A stretch of DNA of 15,377 nucleotides from a virus (IMGVR_UViG_2713896899_000015), one strand, 5' to 3'; positions 1 through 15,377 are shown, numbered from the stretch's first letter. Notes: generated by a model not told the origin, from the letters alone. Program-made: numbers and translations.

Positions 1-174
1 TGTCAGTTATCATCTTCGGTTACGGTTATCGGCAGAAGGCTCTGCCGCTGACAAGAGCTTATTTGCCTGACCAATCTACTTCACATGATAGATAACTATC
101 ATTTATAGCATTTGGCTTATTAACCTTTATTTTTCATTGCGTTACAAACAATAAGTTCGTCAAAAACAGTAAAA

Positions 175-230
175 TTAACTACACCATTAACTACACCGTT
201 CCACGAACAATATCGAACAACCACGAACAA
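175..230. repeat. Direct-repeat array: 2 x 12 bp tandem (ttaactacacc) then 3 x 10-bp phased units ccacgaacaa / tatcgaacaa / ccacgaacaa
   Basis: Read directly at 175-198 and 201-230. The 10-bp unit array recurs at 8402-8431 in the same orientation. One-helical-turn phasing suggests a protein-binding platform. Confidence 0.75.
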
Positions 231-303
231 AGATCAACACGCTTTAATCGTTATCGTTTTCCGGCTATCCGTTATCAAGCTGGTTGATGTGGTGCCATGT
301 TTC

Positions 304-326
304 CCACCAATGGTGGAAAAGCCCAC
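304..326. repeat. 23-bp element ccaccaatggtggaaaagcccac (copy 1), contains inverted repeat CCACC-aat-GGTGG
   Basis: Exact 23/23 match to 1413-1435. Confidence 0.8.
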
Positions 327-455
327 CAGCGCAACGCATTTTTTTAATTTCGCGGGTATAAAAATTTGACGGGGCGGATAGTTCCATAAGTAATGGATTG
401 CAGGAATTTCGATCCCCCTCCTGAATGCAATTTTTCGTATATATATACAAAACAG

Positions 456-612
456 TGCGGGTTATGCGGGTTAGCGGGTTATCTTCGCGTGCTAAGTATT
501 TTTTATACTTTAATATCAATACGTTAAAAAATTACGCGTTTAAATATTAGCCAAAACGTAACCCGCAAGACATTCAAAATAACCCGCAAACACCCCCCAA
601 ATAACCCGCAAA
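456..612. repeat. Iteron cluster A (GCGGGTTAT-type), inverted copy of the origin-type cluster; candidate second ori or P4 crr-like site
   Basis: Three contiguous forward iterons tgcgggttat/gcgggtta/gcgggttat at 456-482, an AT-rich core at 483-558, then three reverse iterons taacccgca at 559-567, 579-588 and 601-610 spaced about 21 bp apart. Mirror image of cluster 9771-9919. Confidence 0.6.
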
Positions 613-1030
613 CGCATCAAGAAAGTGGGTCCAGTGATGCCATCGAACGGCTGAATCGGGTAACGTTCTGTTGCCGGGTTGTTGTTTGCGGGTCAGCAAT
701 ACTGACGCGCAAAGTTAGCCGTACGTGGCGCTGCGTCCACCAGCTACGCCGGAATGGGGTATTCCGTTTCAATGGAACAGGTATGACAAACATGATCGCA
801 CCTTCTCCCGAAAACGGGTTTTCCTGTTTCGGGAAAATGGACACATAAGCGGCGCGGCGATTTTCACCATTCAGAATCTGGAGGGTGAGTTTTCCAGTTT
901 TCCCCAATGGGGGATTCTGGAACAATCAACAGGTTACTCCTTACCAGCAAAAAAGCACATCAACTGTAACGGAAATCGTTATGGTTGCTGGTGGGCCAAA
1001 TCATCATTACGGTGATACAGCCATGTAGAC

Positions 1031-1837: not shown

Positions 1838-3495
1838 ACCCCATCAAACGCCGCAAGCCGCTCTTTGTGGCTGTCGCTCATATCGAATGCAAAGTCCTCG
1901 TGCTCTGCCTGGAATGTGCCAAACGCCATCAGCGCCGCAACGCTCGGGTCTATCTTGTTGGATGATTTTTTCTTGTTCGGCTTGATATTGGCGTTCGCGT
2001 CACTCTGCATCACAACATTACTCATTGACCAGGCCAGCACCGGATCACCACGATGAACAATCACCTTCCGGTTAACAAAAACTTCGAACGATTTCGCCGC
2101 CGGACTGAAACGAAGGTATGTTTGCGGGAACGGCTCCACCTCAAATCCTGCCCCCTGTAGCTGCGTTCTCAGGTGCGTGGCGTTCCATGTATCGAAACCC
2201 ACCAGCCTGATATTGAAATTCTCTGCATCCGCCATGATGTCATCACGGATACGGTCATAATCAATGCAGTCACCCGGTGTTGTGCGTATCCAGCCCGCCT
2301 TTGCCCACTGGCGATAGATGGCGCGGTTTTTATTGGCAGGGTTCTGTAGCTGAAATTCCGGCAGATAGTGACGGGAAACCAGCATAATCTTTTTACCGAC
2401 CGGAAAGGCATAGCACACGCTGGAAATATCGCTGGTTGATGATAAGTCCAGCCCCGCGTAGCACTCCTGCCCGTATAAATCCGCCTCCGCGAACGTTCCG
2501 GCGCACTCCGCCCATGCACCGTTACCCATCCACGGCGTAGCCCCCTGACACCAGATATTGAATCGCTTGGTGAGCATTTCCACCCACTGCGACGGAATAC
2601 CCCGCGCTTTCTGGATGGTTGAGGCCAGTTTTTCACGATCGACGGAAACATCGATATTGGGATTCGCCTTTATCCACATCGCCGGATCGTCAACCTCGCT
2701 TTCATCATCCAGCTCGTAAATCAGCACGAACATGGATTCGTTCACCTCTTCACCATCCAGTATCTGGCAGCAATAGTCGTAGTGTTGTTTACAGGCTGAA
2801 ACAACGTTGCTCCCCGATGTGGTGATGGCAAATAACAGCCCCTCCGGGCGCGCCCCCATTCCCAGCTCAAGCGCGGAATAAACCCCGTTGTCAGGATGCA
2901 GGTGATATTCATCCACAATGGCGAGACTCGGGTTTGTCCCCTCAATGGTTGCCGCTTTTGCTGCCAGTGGCTTTAACAGGCTGTTGGTTTTCGGGTGTAT
3001 CACCTTGTGCGCCTGAATATTTACCCGCTTTCGTAACGGTCGGGATAAAAGGCACATCTGACGCGCATCATCAAACACGATCCGCGCCTGATCACGACTC
3101 ACGGCGGCGGTGTAAATATCCTGCTGCCCGTTTTCCATAACCAGAAACCAGTTAGCCAGGATAGCGGCGACCGTGGATTTGGCATTTTTTCGCGGTACTT
3201 CAATGAATGCGCTGGTGTATTTGCGCCGTCCGGTGGCCTTAACCTTAAAGCCCAGGATGCACGCAAAGGCGAACTGCTGCCACGGCTCCAGTTCAATGGG
3301 GCTACCGCGCATTGCACCTTTTACGTGCGGGCACACCCTGGAAAAGGCAATAAACCGCTCCACGACCTCCGGATCGAACGTGTAAAGGGGGTTTTCAAGG
3401 TCAGAAAAATACCGTTTAACGGCCTGTTTCAGTCGTTTACAGGCCGTAATTTTGCCGTTTTTTACGCCTTCTGCGTACTCATGCCAGGCGGTCAA
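1834..3495 (-). CDS. terL: Terminase large subunit (Terminase_1-type ATPase/nuclease), 553 aa
   Basis: Size and N-terminal ATPase region with P-loop-like KNAKST and a DEYH Walker-B-like motif. Follows terS with a 17-nt overlap. Apparent TTG start at 3493-3495 preceded by AGAGGA (Shine-Dalgarno). Confidence 0.88.
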   Translation of the reverse strand: MTAWHEYAEGVKNGKITACKRLKQAVKRYFSDLENPLYTFDPEVVERFIAFSRVCPHVKGAMRGSPIELEPWQQFAFACILGFKVKATGRRKYTSAFIEVPRKNAKSTVAAILANWFLVMENGQQDIYTAAVSRDQARIVFDDARQMCLLSRPLRKRVNIQAHKVIHPKTNSLLKPLAAKAATIEGTNPSLAIVDEYHLHPDNGVYSALELGMGARPEGLLFAITTSGSNVVSACKQHYDYCCQILDGEEVNESMFVLIYELDDESEVDDPAMWIKANPNIDVSVDREKLASTIQKARGIPSQWVEMLTKRFNIWCQGATPWMGNGAWAECAGTFAEADLYGQECYAGLDLSSTSDISSVCYAFPVGKKIMLVSRHYLPEFQLQNPANKNRAIYRQWAKAGWIRTTPGDCIDYDRIRDDIMADAENFNIRLVGFDTWNATHLRTQLQGAGFEVEPFPQTYLRFSPAAKSFEVFVNRKVIVHRGDPVLAWSMSNVVMQSDANANIKPNKKKSSNKIDPSVAALMAFGTFQAEHEDFAFDMSDSHKERLAAFDGV

Positions 3496-3835
3496 GCTCG
3501 TCCTCTTCCTCTGTTTCCGGTGGATTTCTGCGTCGGCTTACCGGGTCAAAACCCAGCAAAGAAGCCATTTTGATCATTATTCTTTCTGCGTCAGCCTTTG
3601 CGCTCAGGGCGGGGTTTCTGCTCTCGCTGCCCTGACTGTTAACAATGCTGAAGCCGCGCGTCGCAAGGTCTTCGACGGCTTTGCGGTATATGGAGTAGTT
3701 AACGCAATACAGTTCCAGATTGCTCCAGTCGGCGGGGGTAAGGTCTTCCCGCCCGGAAAGCTGGCGCGATTTTTCCTTCCACTGCCTGACCGCGATTTCA
3801 TCCAGGTAAGCGGGGGCTTTTGGTGGTCTTGCCAT
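3479..3835 (-). CDS. terS: Terminase small subunit, P27 family (118 aa from MARPPKAP...)
   Basis: N-terminus MARPPKAPAYL, internal LELYC..Y, and C-terminal NP....A.....K...LGFDP.SR then acidic tail, as in phage P27-family TerS. The ORF-track 5' extension to 3976 is judged non-coding. ATG at 3833-3835. Confidence 0.8.
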   Translation of the reverse strand: MARPPKAPAYLDEIAVRQWKEKSRQLSGREDLTPADWSNLELYCVNYSIYRKAVEDLATRGFSIVNSQGSESRNPALSAKADAERIMIKMASLLGFDPVSRRRNPPETEEEDELDRLA

Positions 3836-3954
3836 GTTCTTTTTTCGCCCAATTATTTTCAAAAAAATTCCCGTGCACAAAAATTTGAGGAGGCGGTCGG
3901 TGTCCGGCAGGGGCGGTTTCGTCCTGAAAACCTCCCCCACCCCCTCTGACGGCC

Positions 3955-4140
3955 TCACCAGCGATTGCGAAAACATTCCATGACCTCGCGGTCACGGTCG
4001 GTTAATCGCTTCGCTGTGGTGCGTTCTGTGCGCTCTGTCCTGTTGGCTTTGTGCCCTGTCTCCTGTGTCTTCCATAAGTCACGCTGCCTTATCAGTCCAC
4101 GTATCAGCCTGTTTTGCTCCTGTTCAGTCATCATCGCCAT
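3955..4140 (-). CDS. Possible small basic protein (61 aa) between HNH and terS; uncertain
   Basis: ATG at 4138-4140 overlaps the last 15 nt of the HNH gene in another frame. Weak Shine-Dalgarno, Arg/Thr/Glu-rich. Could instead be non-coding (this region is a cos-site candidate). Confidence 0.3.
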   Translation of the reverse strand: MAMMTEQEQNRLIRGLIRQRDLWKTQETGHKANRTERTERTTAKRLTDRDREVMECFRNRW

Positions 4141-7031: not shown

Positions 7032-8201
7032 CTAGCCAGCTTTCATTTCCAGAATTTTGATGGCGTTTGAATCCACCACACCACCGCCCAGATATTTATC
7101 CGTGTGGACCTTGTAGAATCCGGGTTCAGTAATGTTGTCCGGTCGGGTGCGAATCCCTGTTACATGATCAACGATGAAATAACCACGACTGAAATCGCCA
7201 ACCGCTAGCGGTGCTTTTCCTGCGCCGATGTCCGGCATGGACTCCAGGCAGTAAACAGGACGACCAAGCAACATATCCGGCGCACCTTCTTTAAGGCTGT
7301 CGCGCCAGATATAATCGCCGTTCTCATTTTTCAGCTTCTGTAGTGTCCCTGCCGTGCCCGAGTTCATCACCCAGACGGCATTTTTGCGGTATTTCGCTTT
7401 CAGCTTGTAGAGAATGTCGATCAGTTCGTCCGCTGTAATGGCGGTTCCACTTGCCGCTACCATTTTTTCAATGGTGCCAAAAGCGCGGGTTTTGTCACTG
7501 GTCGCCGCACGGGTGTAAGCCATGAATCCTTTCGGCTTGCCGTTACCGTCGCCATTAACAAAATCATCCTCTTCGGTGCTGGCGAACGTGTCGGCAATTT
7601 CGGAGGATAACCAGCCCAGAATATCCACCTCTGAAAAATCCAAGATTTCCTGCGTGGTTTTCGGGTAGGCGTAGATCGGATTCAGCTTGATGGTTACGCG
7701 TTCAATTTTCGGGGTGTTGGTTTCGCTGCGCGCGCTGCCTTCTGTGCCTCTTCCTACAGTTGCGCCGCCAGTGGAAACCAGTTTCTGAAACTCATTTGAT
7801 TTTGCGGTCTTCACGGTCGCGATCACGCGCATAACACTGTCATCCTGTAGCTGGCGCATGACTTCGCGATCAAGCTCAGGAATTACGGTATATCCGCCAT
7901 CCCTGCCGCTGTCAGTGCTGGTGGACAGTGATCGCACATCTCCGGTTACGATATAGTTACGCAATTCATCAGATGATAATTTCTGGATGCCCGTTCCTGG
8001 CTTGCTGCGTTCTTCATCAGCCACAGACTCGAGGCGGGAAATTTCTGTGTCGAGGGAATCGGCTTTTGCACGCAGTTCATCAAACTGTTTGCCCTCGTCA
8101 TCGTTCAGGCTGCGGTTTTCACTGTCGGCTTTTTCCAGCAGGGATCGCATCTGGTTTTTCAGGGCGGTTTTTTGCTGGCGGAGTTCGATTAATTTCTTCA
8201 T
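7032..8201 (-). CDS. Major capsid protein, HK97 fold, with N-terminal coiled-coil delta (scaffold) domain (389 aa)
   Basis: N-terminal ~100 aa is charged and heptad-like (delta domain). C-terminal region GTAGTLQKL...LLGRPV...GDFSRGYFIVD is typical of HK97-family capsid proteins. No separate scaffold gene. Confidence 0.9.
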   Translation of the reverse strand: MKKLIELRQQKTALKNQMRSLLEKADSENRSLNDDEGKQFDELRAKADSLDTEISRLESVADEERSKPGTGIQKLSSDELRNYIVTGDVRSLSTSTDSGRDGGYTVIPELDREVMRQLQDDSVMRVIATVKTAKSNEFQKLVSTGGATVGRGTEGSARSETNTPKIERVTIKLNPIYAYPKTTQEILDFSEVDILGWLSSEIADTFASTEEDDFVNGDGNGKPKGFMAYTRAATSDKTRAFGTIEKMVAASGTAITADELIDILYKLKAKYRKNAVWVMNSGTAGTLQKLKNENGDYIWRDSLKEGAPDMLLGRPVYCLESMPDIGAGKAPLAVGDFSRGYFIVDHVTGIRTRPDNITEPGFYKVHTDKYLGGGVVDSNAIKILEMKAG

Positions 8202-8401
8202 GAAGGTTTTCTCGTATTGGTTAAGATTCAGGACGTGAAACCAACACGGAGGGAGCGCCGCCCGACACTCTCGGCATCTCGCAGATCAACCCGGCATCGC
8301 GCAGGGGGTCAGGCGGCATTGTGGCGGCTCACGTCTGAGTGCCACACGCCAACATATACATAAAAATCAGTATGTAAACATCAGCCAGAATCACCGAACA
8401 A

Positions 8402-8470
8402 CCTGGAACAACCACGAACAAATAATTTACAAAACCTGAAAAAAAGACCTGAAAAAAAATCTAGGCCTTT
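8402..8470. repeat. 3 x 10-bp phased units caccgaacaa / cctggaacaa / ccacgaacaa (8402-8431) plus tandem 13-bp acctgaaaaaaa(g/a) x2 (8445-8470), in the capsid-upstream intergenic gap
   Basis: Near-identical to the array at 201-230 (shared 17-mer ccacgaacaa...). Located in the 275-bp noncoding gap 8202-8476 upstream of the capsid gene. Candidate activator-binding site or late promoter. Confidence 0.7.
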
Positions 8471-8476
8471 ATCGCT

Positions 8477-8725
8477 TTATTGTTTCACTGGATCCCGCAT
8501 TCTGCGTCTTATTTTCCACAGATATTCGATCATCGCTTCCACCTGCTCACGGTTGGTTGCGAAAATTTCCCCGGTCAGTGAGCTGCGCAGAAAATCATGA
8601 TGATCCACAACAAACAACGCATCGGAAGAAAGCAGACGGCGATATTTTTTTGCTGTCGTGGTTTCCAGATCATCAAAACCATGAAACTTTTTATGTTGCT
8701 GAACTTCTTCAAATGTCACTGGCAT
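8477..8725 (-). CDS. Hypothetical protein (82 aa)
   Basis: ATG at 8723-8725 with a GGGGG Shine-Dalgarno 5 nt upstream. Overlaps the ProQ/FinO gene stop by 10 nt. No recognisable motif. Confidence 0.55.
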   Translation of the reverse strand: MPVTFEEVQQHKKFHGFDDLETTTAKKYRRLLSSDALFVVDHHDFLRSSLTGEIFATNREQVEAMIEYLWKIRRRMRDPVKQ

Positions 8726-9246
8726 GTATCCCCCTTTGCTGCCCGGCGCTGGCGCTTGTGCTTCTCATTCAGCGCCATCAGCCGCGTTTCTGCCTCCTGC
8801 TGTTCCTGTGGTGTCACTTCCCCACATGGCTGGCCTTTCAGGTCGTAGCGTACCCCACCAGCTATTAAGGCGCGGTAATAGCGCGGAGACTGCGCATAGG
8901 ATGCCAGCGTCGCACGTAATGCCCCCGGCCCGAATGTCAGCCCCCTGGCGGCGATATCCTGCATCAGGTCGTCGAATATCCCCACCTTAAGCGGCTTCGG
9001 TGCTTCCCGGCTGAATAATTCTGGCCACAATTCAATAAGGCGGTTAACGCGTCTGCGGTTTTTGCGCTGGCGTTTGGTCATATGCCGCCACGCTGTCGCC
9101 CCTGTGGGTTTCTGCTGTGCGTTCTGATTGCCGGGTATCACTTTATGCGCCGATGTGGTTTTATCCTGCTGCTGTGCCGCCTGCGGTATTTTCTGCGGCG
9201 TGCCGTAAATGCCTTTCGGTTTTCGGTTAATGGTCATCTTTGTCAT
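8716..9246 (-). CDS. ProQ/FinO-domain RNA-binding protein (176 aa; alternative start at 9237)
   Basis: C-terminal half KPLKVGIFDDL...LRATLASYAQSPRYYRALIAGGVRYDLKGQPCGEV aligns by eye with E. coli ProQ (RPLKIGIFQDL...LRSALRLYTSSWRYL...RVDLDGNPCGEL). Basic, low-complexity N-terminus. Confidence 0.85.
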   Translation of the reverse strand: MTKMTINRKPKGIYGTPQKIPQAAQQQDKTTSAHKVIPGNQNAQQKPTGATAWRHMTKRQRKNRRRVNRLIELWPELFSREAPKPLKVGIFDDLMQDIAARGLTFGPGALRATLASYAQSPRYYRALIAGGVRYDLKGQPCGEVTPQEQQEAETRLMALNEKHKRQRRAAKGDTCQ

Positions 9247-9708: not shown

Positions 9709-9770
9709 GCTGTCTGTTCTCCGGTTTTAACGTTGATGGTTACGCTTGTTTACACCCTTACGGTGAAATT

Positions 9771-9919
9771 CTGCGGGTTATAATCGCGCTTTTGCGGGTT
9801 ATAACTGCCGTTTTGCGGGTTATTTTGGGTATTTTGCGGGTTACGATTTTTCTTTCATTCCTTTAATAATCAAATGGATACTGATTTATCCACAGAAATA
9901 ACCCGCATAACCCGCAAAA
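9771..9919. repeat. Iteron-type replication origin (cluster B) immediately downstream of the primase gene
   Basis: Four forward iterons tgcgggtt(at) at 9772, 9793, 9814 and 9835, exactly 21 bp apart. AT-rich core 9845-9896. Two contiguous reverse iterons ataacccgca / taacccgcaaaa at 9897-9919. Sits between primase stop (9945) and ssb start (9708), as in PICI pri-rep-ori. Confidence 0.65.
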
Positions 9920-9944
9920 TTTTCACTCTACACGCGAGAAAAAA

Positions 9945-12080
9945 TTAATCTTCTTCGCTTTCTGGCTGGAACATCAGCACGTAAAAAACATGCTGCTTCC
10001 CCCCAATTTTGCCGAGCGCCTTTTTCTTGTAACGGCGATCGTTACCCGCTTCCAGCATTCCGGCAGCACTCAACGCGCGGGCAAAGTGAGACGGATTAAA
10101 TCCCTGTGCTATCTCACCCTCAAATACATGCGGGAATGTGTAAAAACGGAACTCGTCATCTTCGTTTCTGATACTCCCCTTTCTGTATCCGGCAAGCTCT
10201 TTAATCGGTAAATCACGCTCGTCAGAGTTGGGCCAGGGAAGGTATCTGCTGAATCCGAACGACGCTAAAAAAGCCTCTGCCTGTTCAACCATCTGTTTAA
10301 ACTCCCTGTTACCCGTGCCGAACTCCTTCACCCAGGCATTAAAATTATGCTGTATGGCATCGCGGCATTCCTGCTCATCCCAGCCAGTAACATGACCTGA
10401 AAGCACAAGCGCGGCCTCCAGTATGGCAAATCGCTCCCCCACACGGTGAACCTGTTCGCCGTAGCTCTCCGGTATCAGGTTGCGCCACCGCTCACGGCAT
10501 GTCCTTACCGTGTCCTTTGCCTCCTGCTGGTGTTCTGCCAGCCATTTAACCCACTCACGACCCGCTGCCCCGTGATTTTCTGTCCAGGCATCCTTTAACG
10601 CGTCTGCGTGCGCCTTTCCGGTGCTGTATTCGTGAAATTGTGTGGCTTTTTCCATCGGCACGTTAAGCAGACGGACAAGCTGCCCCGCTTTAATTTTTAT
10701 CCCTTCCGTTTTGAGGAATGTTTCAACGTCCATTTCTCCGGTACTGATTGCCACCGTGCGCCAGTGTTTGATCTCCCTGTTGCCGCCGTCCTTCGCCCCC
10801 TGTAATTTCCCCGAACCGTTAAACAGCGTATAAGCCGACGTGGACACTTCCCGCGCGTTTCCGGCCTGACCTATTTCATCCAGGGGTAACAGCCCGTCAT
10901 TGTGCGCCTCTGCCTCGTTGGCGATGCCTAACGCTGTACCGTACCAGGTCAGCCGTTGCGCGTCCGGCTCTCCCCATAAACTGGATGCGATGTTCTGTGT
11001 GGTGGTTTTCCCTGCCGATGACTGTTCGAAAAGATGTACCCCGAAGCCGTCAGCACCCACCAGCCCGATTAATGGTGCGGATAATGATACCGCCACACCC
11101 AGCATCATGGACGGATTACCACCAGCCAACCGCGCAACGGTATCGCGCCAGCCCTCCGCCGTTCCTGCCACGGAATAACCATTAACAGCGGCAGTTTTTC
11201 CGGTAAACAGGACTGGCTTTTCGCAATCACCAATGACCGAACCGTCCGGCATGATGTACGCGCCAAAATGCCAGCCCGTTGTTGTGCTTAACTGCCATTC
11301 CTCATGGTTTCCGCTTAACTGCATCCAGTCAGCCAGGATAGCCCTGTATTTACCGTTGGTTGTCACATTCAGTCCGTGGTCTTTCAGCAGCCGCCAGCCG
11401 TCACGGTCGCCAATGCCCCCACACGGGATCGCCATTGTGATGACTTCATGGTTTGCTGGTTTTTTCCAGCGCATCACGCGGTAATGCTCTTTGCCGATTG
11501 TCCCCGTTCCCAGTAGTTCAAGCGGGGAACATAACCACGTCTCAGGCCGGATAATTTCGCCTGACTGCTTATCCACTTTTGGCGTTACCCAGAAAACACC
11601 ATCGGCACGGCTTTCAACGCGGGGCTTTAATTCATCATCACCCGGGCTTGTGGTGGTTTTTTTCTTTACCGGAAGTTTAATTACCAGATCTGCAGAAAGA
11701 TTCTGACGCTCAACGTTCAGATAGCGCCGCCAGTTCTCGCATTTCTGACCGTGCATTCCTTCAGGGTAAAAATTCGCATCCTGAATATCTGCCGCCGCCA
11801 GCTTCTGACCGATCTTTTTGGTCTCCACTAAATCCAGTTCTCCGGCCTGGTACAGCCTTACGCGTTTTTTCCCATCCGGAACAATTTTCAGCGCATCAAG
11901 TTCGGCAAGCTGATTTGGCCCAAGCCACACAGGCGGCACATCATCGCCAGATGCGGGGCCGTCCTGCTCCTGCCACTGTTTTGCATGTGCCCACGCATCA
12001 CTACCCGCGAAAATAATTACCTCTGTGTCTTTGTGTTTTATTCCGCGTGGTTGTTTTTTTACGTTCGGTGCCAGTTTCAT
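9945..12080 (-). CDS. Replication initiator, primase/helicase-type (PICI Pri-Rep / P4 alpha-like), 711 aa
   Basis: Large multidomain protein with a P-loop (SSAGKTT) in the central region. Directly upstream of the iteron origin. ATG at 12078-12080 overlaps the preceding gene stop (ATGA). Domain family not verified by search. Confidence 0.75.
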   Translation of the reverse strand: MKLAPNVKKQPRGIKHKDTEVIIFAGSDAWAHAKQWQEQDGPASGDDVPPVWLGPNQLAELDALKIVPDGKKRVRLYQAGELDLVETKKIGQKLAAADIQDANFYPEGMHGQKCENWRRYLNVERQNLSADLVIKLPVKKKTTTSPGDDELKPRVESRADGVFWVTPKVDKQSGEIIRPETWLCSPLELLGTGTIGKEHYRVMRWKKPANHEVITMAIPCGGIGDRDGWRLLKDHGLNVTTNGKYRAILADWMQLSGNHEEWQLSTTTGWHFGAYIMPDGSVIGDCEKPVLFTGKTAAVNGYSVAGTAEGWRDTVARLAGGNPSMMLGVAVSLSAPLIGLVGADGFGVHLFEQSSAGKTTTQNIASSLWGEPDAQRLTWYGTALGIANEAEAHNDGLLPLDEIGQAGNAREVSTSAYTLFNGSGKLQGAKDGGNREIKHWRTVAISTGEMDVETFLKTEGIKIKAGQLVRLLNVPMEKATQFHEYSTGKAHADALKDAWTENHGAAGREWVKWLAEHQQEAKDTVRTCRERWRNLIPESYGEQVHRVGERFAILEAALVLSGHVTGWDEQECRDAIQHNFNAWVKEFGTGNREFKQMVEQAEAFLASFGFSRYLPWPNSDERDLPIKELAGYRKGSIRNEDDEFRFYTFPHVFEGEIAQGFNPSHFARALSAAGMLEAGNDRRYKKKALGKIGGKQHVFYVLMFQPESEED

Positions 12081-13520: not shown

Positions 13521-13730
13521 TTACGCTGCCTTGCCTGAATTAATGCGATCCCGGCTTTTAACCCATTCCATAACCTCGGACAGCAGCCAACCTACAGAAC
13601 GACCGCCCAGATTAAGGCGTGACGGAAATCGCCCTTTTTTCTCCAGTTCGTAGCGTGTAGTGCGACACACTCCAGTTAACTTACGACATTCATCCTCACG
13701 GATTACGCGATCTTCATTTATTTCACGCAT
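13521..13730 (-). CDS. alpA: AlpA-family (MerR/excisionase-like) transcriptional regulator, 69 aa
   Basis: LTGVCRTTRYELEKKGRFPSRLNLGGRSVGWLLSEVMEWVKSR matches the AlpA/Xis helix-turn-helix pattern (..T.Y.....G.FP....LG.R.VGW...EV.EW...R). ATG at 13728-13730 with AGGT Shine-Dalgarno. The track's longer ORF starts at a GTG (13817) with no Shine-Dalgarno. Confidence 0.8.
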   Translation of the reverse strand: MREINEDRVIREDECRKLTGVCRTTRYELEKKGRFPSRLNLGGRSVGWLLSEVMEWVKSRDRINSGKAA

Positions 13731-13817: not shown

Positions 13818-14138
13818 CTCTTAAATTAAAAACACAACCTTGCTAAAGGCTTGTTCGCTAAGGTTCGTAGAAGCTCGTTAGTGTTTAAAATCGTGTCACG
13901 AGTTTTTAAGCGACGCAACAAAAAATGTCGTCACTTGGCATTACGCTTGAATTATCTCATTAAAAACAAATAGATAAATCATCAGGTATTGGAACAATCA
14001 AGAAATAGCTAATAAGGGTTTAGTAGGGTGCATTTCAATTTTTTCGATGGTTGACAAATAAAAAATTAACGAACTTGACCGATATTTAGCGTTTTATTCA
14101 CGGCTGTAATCTCTTAAAGAAAAAACAGCCGTAATTTG
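13818..14138. promoter_or_regulatory. AT-rich int-alpA intergenic region with inverted repeat acggctgt-N17-acagccgt (14100-14132); probable alpA promoter/operator
   Basis: 321-bp gap at about 70% AT between the int stop and alpA. Contains TTGACA at 14051-14056 (+) and TTGACA on the minus strand at 14133-14138, plus an 8-bp-arm inverted repeat. No confident -10/-35 pairing could be resolved by eye. Confidence 0.3.
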
Positions 14139-15377
14139 TCAAGAATTTTGGGTGTAAATTCGCGGGGTCATAACAACGATTTTTTCATCATTGTTCTGGA
14201 GAAGCTCGAGACGGTCTACCCATAGATTAAGAGCATCACGTTTTGCATCAAGATAACGGGAGTGGTTATAGACTCGTTGCATCCCTGGCATCTGGTGGGC
14301 TGTAAGCTGCTCGACAATATGCGGATCCACGCCTAAATCGTTCAGCATGGTTGTAAATGTGTGCCGGATATCGTGTAACGTCCAGGGGGCTTGATTAATT
14401 CGTCTGTGCGCTGTTCTTCCGTACTCTGCTACGGATGATTGCCCTTTCAGTTCTCCAAGCAATAAGCCCGTGTGCCTGTTCTTCTCCACCAGCTGCGTGA
14501 CGAACGGCAGAATGCTTTCCGGTATTGGTCTGAATATGGCGACCTTCGTTTTGCTGTGCTCCTTCGGTACTGTCCAGAGCATTTCCTTAAAATCCCACTC
14601 CTGCACCTCAGAGCGCCTTAGCTCAGTGGTACGGCATCCAAAAACAATCAGGAGGCGAATTAGGGCGCTGTAGTACGGCGGGAAGATTTTTTCATCCAGT
14701 GCGCGGAGTAGTTCCCCAAGCTCTTTGTTTGTCAGTACACGCTCACTTATTTCTGCTTTTTTCCCCACATCACCTACGACCATATCATCAAGAACGTTGC
14801 TGATTGCGTATCGTCGTTTTCGGCAGTACTTAAGCGCCTGTTTGCATACCTGTAGCAAAAATCCGGCTGATACCGGATTACGCTTAGCAAGCTGGTCAAA
14901 ACAGGCCAGCCAGTGGCGTAGCTCGCATTTTTCCAGTGGCATAGCGCCAATCTGGCTAATTATGTGTTTATTGATCCGGCTTTTCAGTGATTCGTAGTCA
15001 GTGCGCTTTTCCTTTGCGTACGATTCAAGCCAGTAAGTGAGCGCTTCCTTAACCGTCACGGGGGCTAACGCATCCTGTACAGCATGATTAAGTTCATAAC
15101 GCGGATTTTTCCCCTCAGCCAGCCAGGCGCGACACTGTGCCGCTTTTTCCCTGGCAGCTTTCAGGCTCAGATCGGGATAATTGCCCAGCCTCAGACGTTC
15201 CGGTGATATCTGCCTACCAGTTCCGGCCCTGTAAGTGAAATACCAGGTTAACAGGCCATTGATTGAATGCCTTACGCTAAGGTTGCCACCATCATTAAAA
15301 AAGGTGCTTTTTGTGGTTGGTGATCCGCTTAATTTTCGTAAAAGAGTGTCGCTAAGTCTATGAATTGCCCTGCTCAT
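14139..15377 (-). CDS. int: Tyrosine recombinase / site-specific integrase, P4-like (412 aa; start codon on the window edge)
   Basis: C-terminal catalytic region HDIRHTF...LTAHQMPGMQRVYNHSRY contains the H-x-x-R and terminal Tyr nucleophile context of tyrosine integrases. Size is typical of P4-family integrases. The ATG occupies 15375-15377, so a further upstream start cannot be excluded. Confidence 0.9.
   Translation of the reverse strand: MSRAIHRLSDTLLRKLSGSPTTKSTFFNDGGNLSVRHSINGLLTWYFTYRAGTGRQISPERLRLGNYPDLSLKAAREKAAQCRAWLAEGKNPRYELNHAVQDALAPVTVKEALTYWLESYAKEKRTDYESLKSRINKHIISQIGAMPLEKCELRHWLACFDQLAKRNPVSAGFLLQVCKQALKYCRKRRYAISNVLDDMVVGDVGKKAEISERVLTNKELGELLRALDEKIFPPYYSALIRLLIVFGCRTTELRRSEVQEWDFKEMLWTVPKEHSKTKVAIFRPIPESILPFVTQLVEKNRHTGLLLGELKGQSSVAEYGRTAHRRINQAPWTLHDIRHTFTTMLNDLGVDPHIVEQLTAHQMPGMQRVYNHSRYLDAKRDALNLWVDRLELLQNNDEKIVVMTPRIYTQNS

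Follow-up and report, generated by a model that had tools for sequence, protein, structure and literature searches.

What reads the phased direct repeats that lie upstream of the capsid gene in this 15,377-nucleotide stretch of viral DNA (IMGVR_UViG_2713896899_000015; "the window" below means the whole of this stretch), and is it at these repeats that the morphogenesis genes are switched on? An earlier note on this DNA had described three such repeats and had proposed that an excisionase/AlpA-like protein or a late activator binds them cooperatively.

Judged by its gene content, the window is a capsid-forming PICI (cf-PICI). The hallmarks of such islands are all present. One end carries int and alpA, the replicon is of the primase type, and genes for capsid, protease, portal, connectors, HNH, TerS and TerL, recognized by their Pfam matches, belong to the island itself. 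Tail and lysis genes are absent and the size is about 15 kb, as is also typical of cf-PICIs. This content agrees with the gene set described for EcCIEDL933 (bioRxiv 10.1101/2022.09.08.507074), and the gene order is that of EcCIEDL933-type islands, with every gene of the window on the minus strand. The island is inserted between clpS and cspD; the leftmost ~100 bp of the window belong to the host and lie upstream of clpS, and in related islands the opposite junction adjoins yljB and cspD. The start of alpA was taken as the ATG that is annotated for the homologue in a related island, L003. Coordinates of all features are collected in the table.

The repeats had been said to lie in a 275-bp gap interrupting an otherwise tightly coupled operon. 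The gap itself (8202–8476) stands, flanked by an 82-aa ORF on one side and on the other by the capsid gene, after which come the genes for prohead protease, portal, head completion protein, connector, HNH, TerS and TerL. Coupling elsewhere is not uniformly tight, since there are further gaps of 236 bp (9709–9944) and 147 bp (3977–4123). The first of these is the replication origin. The second separates the HNH and terS genes and is presumably the position of cos, by analogy with HK97-like phages. Two clusters of iteron-like TAACCCGC/GCGGGTTA units were also seen, one at 9772–9916, directly downstream of the primase gene where an origin is expected, and one at 456–612, where inverted copies surround an AT-rich segment close to the far att arm. 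Window positions 1–892, which include the latter cluster, are 96.5% identical in L004, an island of a different type that encodes a protease-capsid fusion protein.

Features of the window, from the int end to the far att arm
Feature	Coordinates	Strand	Basis or remark
Tyrosine integrase with N-terminal arm-DNA-binding domain	14139–15377	−	PF00589, PF13356
Phased pair TTGTTCG-ctaa-GGTTCG	13851–13867	+	~125 bp upstream of alpA start
alpA, 68-aa winged-helix excisionase/regulator	13521–13727	−	Pfam PF05930, 2e-16
Small ORFs	between alpA and DUF927 primase	−	gene calls
DUF927 primase	9945–12080	−	Pfam
SSB gene	between primase and ProQ/FinO-domain gene	−	Pfam
ProQ/FinO-domain RNA-chaperone-like protein	8716–9246	−	Pfam PF04352, 4e-25
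82-aa ORF	8477–8725	−	ORF call
Tandem 13-bp repeat ACCTGAAAAAAAG, 1.9 copies	8434–8458		T-rich on transcribed strand; 100% match
TTTGTAAAT box	8425–8433	−	11 bp, in phase, upstream of first unit; single exact copy in window
Three head-to-tail 10-bp units TTGTTCGTGG, TTGTTCCAGG, TTGTTCGGTG	8392–8421	−	candidate AlpA operator
Predicted sigma-70-type promoter of the capsid–terminase operon	8351–8378	−	consensus scan
Conserved structured 5′ leader of capsid mRNA, ~140 nt	8202–8345	−	covariation
HK97-fold major capsid gene, first of the packaging operon behind the predicted promoter	7032–8201	−	Pfam
terS	3479–3976		
Second triple array TTGTTCGTGG TTGTTCGATA TTGTTCGTGG	201–230	−	att arm, island end far from int
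Tandem 12-bp pair ATTAACTACACC (two copies), putative integrase arm-type sites	174–197		adjoins second array, 3 bp apart
Probable att core ATAACTATCAT	92–102		common to int-side junction of L003; host DNA upstream of clpS to left

Read on the minus strand, positions 8433 to 8392 are TTTGTAAAT-tat-TTGTTCGTGG-TTGTTCCAGG-TTGTTCGGTG, that is, a short box followed by units at 8421–8412, 8411–8402 and 8401–8392, whose cores appear on the plus strand as GAACAA starting at 8396, 8406 and 8416. Three direct repeats in the same orientation and at exact 10-bp spacing are thus what the sequence contains, as had been reported; the array was, however, made to begin at 8402, which cuts off the third unit. 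Counted on both strands, 6-mers occurring three times at exact 10-bp spacing number six in the window and zero in 200 dinucleotide shuffles, so the array is non-random. All six counts come from two places, the capsid-gap array and a TTGTTCG triple at 201–230 that the earlier note had missed, and the first 17 bases of this second array are identical to those of the first. Across 1.45 Mb of related loci we found only 12 arrays of at least three phased TGTT[CT] units. The 13-bp A-rich tandem repeat that had been described next to the array is real but not conserved; because it is absent from O157-type (L001-type) gaps, we regard it as lineage-specific and outside the conserved core.

Related islands, in which the repeats could have been missing, do carry them upstream of the capsid gene (L001, L002, L085 and L086). 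A query with the gap matched 523 of 5,426 complete E. coli genomes. For 396 of these 523 records the identity was 90–95%, and the examples listed among them align only over the ~50–56 bp of box and array. The flanks of such matches belong to a different capsid lineage and are unalignable, leaving box and array as the sole alignable part between two E. coli capsid lineages; in each case inspected they lie upstream of a cf-PICI capsid gene. When box and array were compared with 50,697 phage records (blastn), only spurious 26-nt matches in Prevotella megaphages were returned. Since no phage record carries them, they do not appear to have been borrowed from any known helper-phage late promoter.

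Downstream of the array a consensus scan predicts a promoter consisting of a −35 element TTTACA (8378–8373), a 16-bp spacer and a −10 element TATGTT (8356–8351), together matching the consensus at nine of 12 positions. It is the only sigma-70-like site found in a scan of 8100–8800, where shuffles average 0.7; such a lone match is not significant by itself and becomes convincing because relatives keep the same elements in the same order and at the same distance. The relatives were taken from 80 loci of other species that encode related capsid proteins. The TTTGTAAAT box is conserved in the cf-PICI capsid gaps of Enterobacterales, Xenorhabdus/Photorhabdus and Testudinibacter, and in all of these groups it is followed by about three phased units, a promoter and a conserved leader. 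The phased units vary (TTGTTC, GTTTAC, GATTAC and others), and the promoter has either TTTAC(A/T/G) as its −35 element or, instead, a GC hairpin and T-run, then a 16-bp spacer and a TAT(C/G)TT −10 element. In all 20 of the 20 distinct Enterobacterales gaps with a leader anchor, the distance from the box to this anchor is 87 or 88 bp, a spacing that has remained constant although the sequence between has turned over, and 75 bp separate the box from the −10 region in 11 of 16 Xenorhabdus-type gaps. The GTGTTCAC/GTATTCAC triple arrays of Pasteurellaceae were rejected as homologues and excluded from the array comparisons; they come from one locus, form inverted copies on either side of an AT-rich segment and are best explained as iterons of an origin.

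From the predicted promoter we infer a transcription start at ~8344 on the minus strand. The array would then occupy about −77 to −48, with its units centred near −75, −65 and −55, a position that suits an upstream activator. The earlier suggestion that the repeats form an AlpA-like or activator site switching on the morphogenesis genes is supported, in that the predicted promoter lies immediately downstream on the correct strand and at a conserved distance. The −35 and −10 elements of the window are fairly good ones, so the need for an activator is not obvious from the sequence. Many relatives have a GC hairpin and T-run in place of the −35 element where the window has a good TTTACA, which implies that the same box and array precede promoters of two classes. 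In L010, L017–L020 and others, the terminator-like hairpin and its T-run (for example CCCCTC-N6-GAGGGG-TTTTCTTT) overlap the third unit.

The second array places the same motif in an att arm, and this is not peculiar to the window. Across islands the phased arrays of the att arms lie 32–53 bp from tandem 12-bp pairs, and both arms carry arrays in L001, L002 and L088. L001 (from O157:H7, between thiM and rcnR) has at either end of the island a copy of a 70-bp block made up of a 12-bp pair and three units of the TTGTTC type, with another triple array nearer the core; L002 (inserted in yifB) and L003 have the same layout beside the int start codon, and in L003 the ATTAACTACACC pair adjoins that codon. 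Phased TGTT[CT] pairs were found in 10 of 27 arm segments (110 bp each) and in 12 of 18 capsid gaps, as against 6 in 462 kb of background. The 12-bp pairs themselves fall into several types (GGTGTAGT, GGTGTATC, TGTATAAAC, GTGGGGTA and TGTGGTC, among others), and the type tracks the N-terminal domain of the integrase, which is 72% identical within types and 44% between them, while islands with identical AlpA carry different types. Because the pairs covary with the integrase N-terminal domain and not with AlpA, we take the pairs to be integrase arm-type sites and the TGTT arrays to belong to a different factor.

AlpA is the excision (recombination directionality) factor and master activator of Gram-negative PICIs. 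That of EcCICFT073 activates its own promoter and downstream genes and triggers int-dependent excision (PMC6092414); in EcCIMP1, alpA is needed for excision and circularization, and its deletion lowers the activity of an alpA-promoter reporter (PMC11773190); and in EcCIEDL933 an alpA mutation abolishes induction and transfer (bioRxiv 10.1101/2022.09.08.507074). The window's protein matches PHROG 2790 ("excisionase and transcriptional regulator") and PDB 8c3t ("AlpA family phage regulatory protein", 5e-8). The sites of excisionase-type winged-helix proteins, lambda Xis and P2 Cox among them, are direct repeats with a spacing of about one helical turn. No published operator or binding site of AlpA turned up in the literature that we searched, and a search for the code 8C3T returned no relevant paper.

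Differences between islands allow AlpA and integrase to be told apart as possible readers of the arrays. The window (with L003) and L001 have 97%-identical AlpA but different integrase arm types, whereas L002 and EcCICFT073 have the window's integrase arm type but a 57%-identical AlpA, which in these two islands is the same protein accession. In islands with window-type AlpA, whose integrase types differ, 19 of 20 units have a G directly after the TTGTTC core; in islands with CFT073-type AlpA, whose integrase arm type is that of the window, 15 of 20 have a C there. The flanking base thus appears to go with the allele of AlpA rather than with the type of integrase, which points to AlpA, in a correlation that covers only some three independent lineages and in which alpA and the arms are physically linked. 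Since the capsid array is mixed (units ending in G, C and G) under either allele, allele specificity cannot be read from it. A whole-array comparison of the 32-nt capsid array with the island's own int-side arm gave no island-specific signal, with 18.5 of 32 positions matching in the own arm, 16.6–18.8 in the arms of other islands and 16.0 in coding controls.

The motif also occurs near alpA. EcCICFT073 has three (plus one) GAACAA units in its int–alpA intergenic region, in addition to TTGTTC pairs beside the 12-bp pairs of both arms, and L002 likewise has an array between int and alpA. The phased pair that the window carries upstream of alpA reads GAACAA on the transcribed strand, which is the orientation of the EcCICFT073 array upstream of alpA, and it is a weak candidate for an autoregulatory site. 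In L001, an EcCIEDL933-type island, we found no clear array upstream of alpA, just a GTTCG pair in a terminator-like hairpin. Such a GC hairpin with a T-run lies directly before the alpA start codon in L001 (~18020–18130, minus strand), L006 and L021, and its loop carries two units, GTTCG or CGAAC, at a distance of 10 bp; L001 has, besides, two GTGATATCAC palindromes 20 bp apart just upstream. These elements might be relevant to the induction of alpA by a helper phage.

On this evidence we consider it moderately probable that the triple array is an AlpA operator serving as the upstream activating site of the capsid–terminase operon. An excisionase/AlpA-like binder, as proposed earlier, finds support in the motif's presence in the att arms beside the integrase arm-type sites, the place at which excision factors bind, in its presence in the int–alpA region of EcCICFT073 and in the flanking base linked to the AlpA allele. 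According to the mechanism that we propose, a helper phage would induce alpA, and AlpA monomers would bind head to tail, one per helical turn. Bound to the att-arm arrays, with integrase on the 12-bp pairs, AlpA would promote excision; on an array upstream of alpA it would bring about positive autoregulation; and on the capsid-gap array it would drive transcription of the capsid–protease–portal–connector–HNH–terminase operon. The invariant TTTGTAAAT box, one turn further upstream, would be part of the same promoter architecture. Both the binding of AlpA and its acting here as an activator rather than a repressor are inferred from sequence.

The arrays could also be real protein sites, at the att arms and at the capsid promoter alike, for a binder other than AlpA. 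An architectural protein of the host, for example Fis, might be this binder, or a response regulator with direct repeats as its target, and each of them could aid both recombination and transcription. Several observations lean this way. The TGTT(C/T) core and the TTTGTAAAT box are near-constant while AlpA diverges to ~40–50% identity, and in some islands the type of array tracks the packaging module and not the AlpA class (in L015 and L028 the spacing, 10+10 or 8+10, goes with the class of promoter). Box and first unit together (GTAAATTATTTGTTC, 8416–8430, minus strand) fit the Fis consensus GNNNAWWWWWTNNNC, as do 12 of the 42 distinct capsid gaps, while in background sequence a match turns up once per 2,985 nt; Fis is known to cooperate with Xis in lambda excision. 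However, the remaining 30 of 42 gaps fall outside the Fis consensus, the box is absent from the att arms, and a host factor leaves the switch of the flanking base from G to C with the AlpA allele unexplained. We think a binder of this kind unlikely and regard Fis as a weak lead. Several related islands, as it happens, are apparently inserted at the 3′ end of what we take to be fis (flank ...gttcatgccgta).

It is very unlikely, in our view, that the arrays are themselves integrase arm-type sites, with the capsid copy reflecting an influence of integrase on late transcription or being a relic of an att arm. Arrays do lie in both att arms, where arm-type sites are found, the integrase does have an arm-DNA-binding domain, and P′1–P′3 of lambda are likewise three direct repeats ~10 bp apart. 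It is nevertheless the 12-bp pairs and not the TGTT arrays that covary with the integrase N-terminal domain, and the TGTT core is unchanged across integrases in which this domain is just 44% identical; the unit flank, moreover, appears to track AlpA, and the EcCICFT073 and L002 arrays between int and alpA lie away from att. We find it highly improbable that the array is only a patch of DNA shape or of H-NS-type silencing whose likeness to the arm arrays is one of shared composition. The region is AT-rich with T-tracts, and whole-array matches to the arms exceed the coding controls only modestly, but identical hexamers in 10-bp phase appeared in 0 of 200 shuffles, background arrays number 6 in 462 kb, and 17 bases are identical between the two arrays of the window.

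That the repeats are packaging sites (TerS, cos or pac) or replication iterons is scarcely credible. Phased direct repeats are indeed bound by the small subunits of terminases as well as by initiators of replication, and the threefold GTGTTCAC arrays upstream of the capsid gene in Pasteurellaceae cf-PICIs resemble origin iterons. Terminase sites are disfavoured, however, because the motif is found in the att arms, at a great distance from terS, and in EcCICFT073, which has no annotated terminase gene; the capsid-gap array, too, lies 4.4 kb from terS. Origin iterons are disfavoured because the array is unchanged in L002 despite a different replicase (RepA helicase as against the DUF927 primase of the window) and because in the window it is the TAACCCGC repeats next to the primase gene that are the real iterons.

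Some more specific candidates were tried and rejected. The 82-aa protein encoded next to the gap had been called an RHH protein and put forward for binding assays; it has no detectable DNA-binding family (no Pfam match, and a PHROG of unknown function only), and in relatives that keep the array a PerC-like gene stands in its place, so that it is an unlikely binder. Late promoters of the P2 Ogr/P4 Delta type carry a dyad, TGT-N12-ACA, centred near −55; here the sequence 12 nt from the TGT of the box is CGT, not ACA, and the repeats are direct, with no dyad. The consensus sequences for CRP and IHF did not fit by eye.

Beyond the predicted start, the leader of the capsid mRNA is conserved in its own right. 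It comprises a hairpin P1 (8345–8321, GUGGCACUCAGACGUGAGCCGCCAC), a long variable stem P2, the sequence TCACGTC (8238–8232) and a helix over the ribosome-binding region. Both P1 and P2 show compensatory changes. The loop of P1, GACGUGA, is complementary to the UCACGUC that lies just ahead of the ribosome-binding helix (GGUUUC/GAAACC), and this pairing is kept in 17 of 17 sequences, with one compensatory pair (UA to GC in three sequences). An Rfam search of the gap at a permissive E-value returned nothing meaningful. The pairing suggests a translational switch. The ProQ/FinO-domain gene lies two genes upstream of the leader, and any link between its protein and the leader is speculation on our part. 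A fuller version of our proposal would have one TTGTTC code read by AlpA for excision at both att arms, for alpA autoactivation and for the firing of the capsid–terminase operon. A host factor, Fis for instance, would recognize the box, and the leader, a structure not described before, would switch between the P1 hairpin and a long-range pairing beside the ribosome-binding site, possibly under the action of the ProQ/FinO-domain protein, making capsid production a decision with three inputs. As a whole, this composite seems to us unlikely and is offered as such.

A candidate operator made up of TTGTTC units one turn apart makes the AlpA induction circuit directly testable. If AlpA does read the array, this would explain how cf-PICIs time the production of their own capsids, would allow AlpA regulons to be annotated by motif in the ~10% of complete E. 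coli genomes with a match (523 of 5,426), and would add a satellite example to the theme of excisionases as regulators. Further layers of control are suggested by the constant spacing at the promoter and by the structure of the leader.

How does such an arrangement compare with known systems? The AlpA of Pseudomonas aeruginosa is a Q-like antiterminator with a helix-turn-helix at residues 128–142, which loads onto RNA polymerase and recognizes a single GGGACG lying between the −35 and −10 elements (PMC9371919). We rejected it as a model: it is a larger, unrelated protein without phased upstream repeats and has the name and the role of a positive regulator alone in common with the AlpA considered here. 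RdfS of ICEMlSymR7A is reported to be a winged-helix excision factor that controls excision and transfer, a class of protein said there often to oligomerise on DNA (PMC11963761); RdfS differs in belonging to an ICE from a distant host. The AlpA proteins of EcCICFT073, EcCIMP1 and EcCIEDL933 are of the same family as that of the window and 57–97% identical to it, and the papers that describe them define no binding site (PMC6092414; PMC11773190; bioRxiv 10.1101/2022.09.08.507074). EcCICFT073 is a classical PICI, and in its gap between perC and the late operon both box and array are absent, from which we conclude that the capsid-promoter array is specific to cf-PICIs.

In its logic the array appears to resemble the sites of lambda Xis, P2 Cox and P4 Vis, while an AlpA operator as such would be new to the literature that we searched. 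On X1-X1.5-X2, three winged-helix monomers of lambda Xis form a micro-filament, head to tail and about one turn apart, beside an integrase arm-type site, a geometry matched by the three 10-bp units adjoining the 12-bp pairs. The known lambda sites are confined to one arm and Xis is not known to activate late genes, whereas here arrays occur in both arms and at a predicted promoter. P2 Cox and P4 Vis are small excision factors that bind direct repeats in attP and at promoters, including satellite late promoters. Cox belongs to a protein family different from AlpA; Vis, which P4 needs for its excision, is distantly homologous to AlpA (PMC6092414). The TTGTTC motif, the triple 10-bp layout and the satellite-encoded capsid–terminase target set the window apart from both, and binding is in our case a prediction; the likeness that we propose is that here, too, one protein would couple excision to a transcriptional switch.
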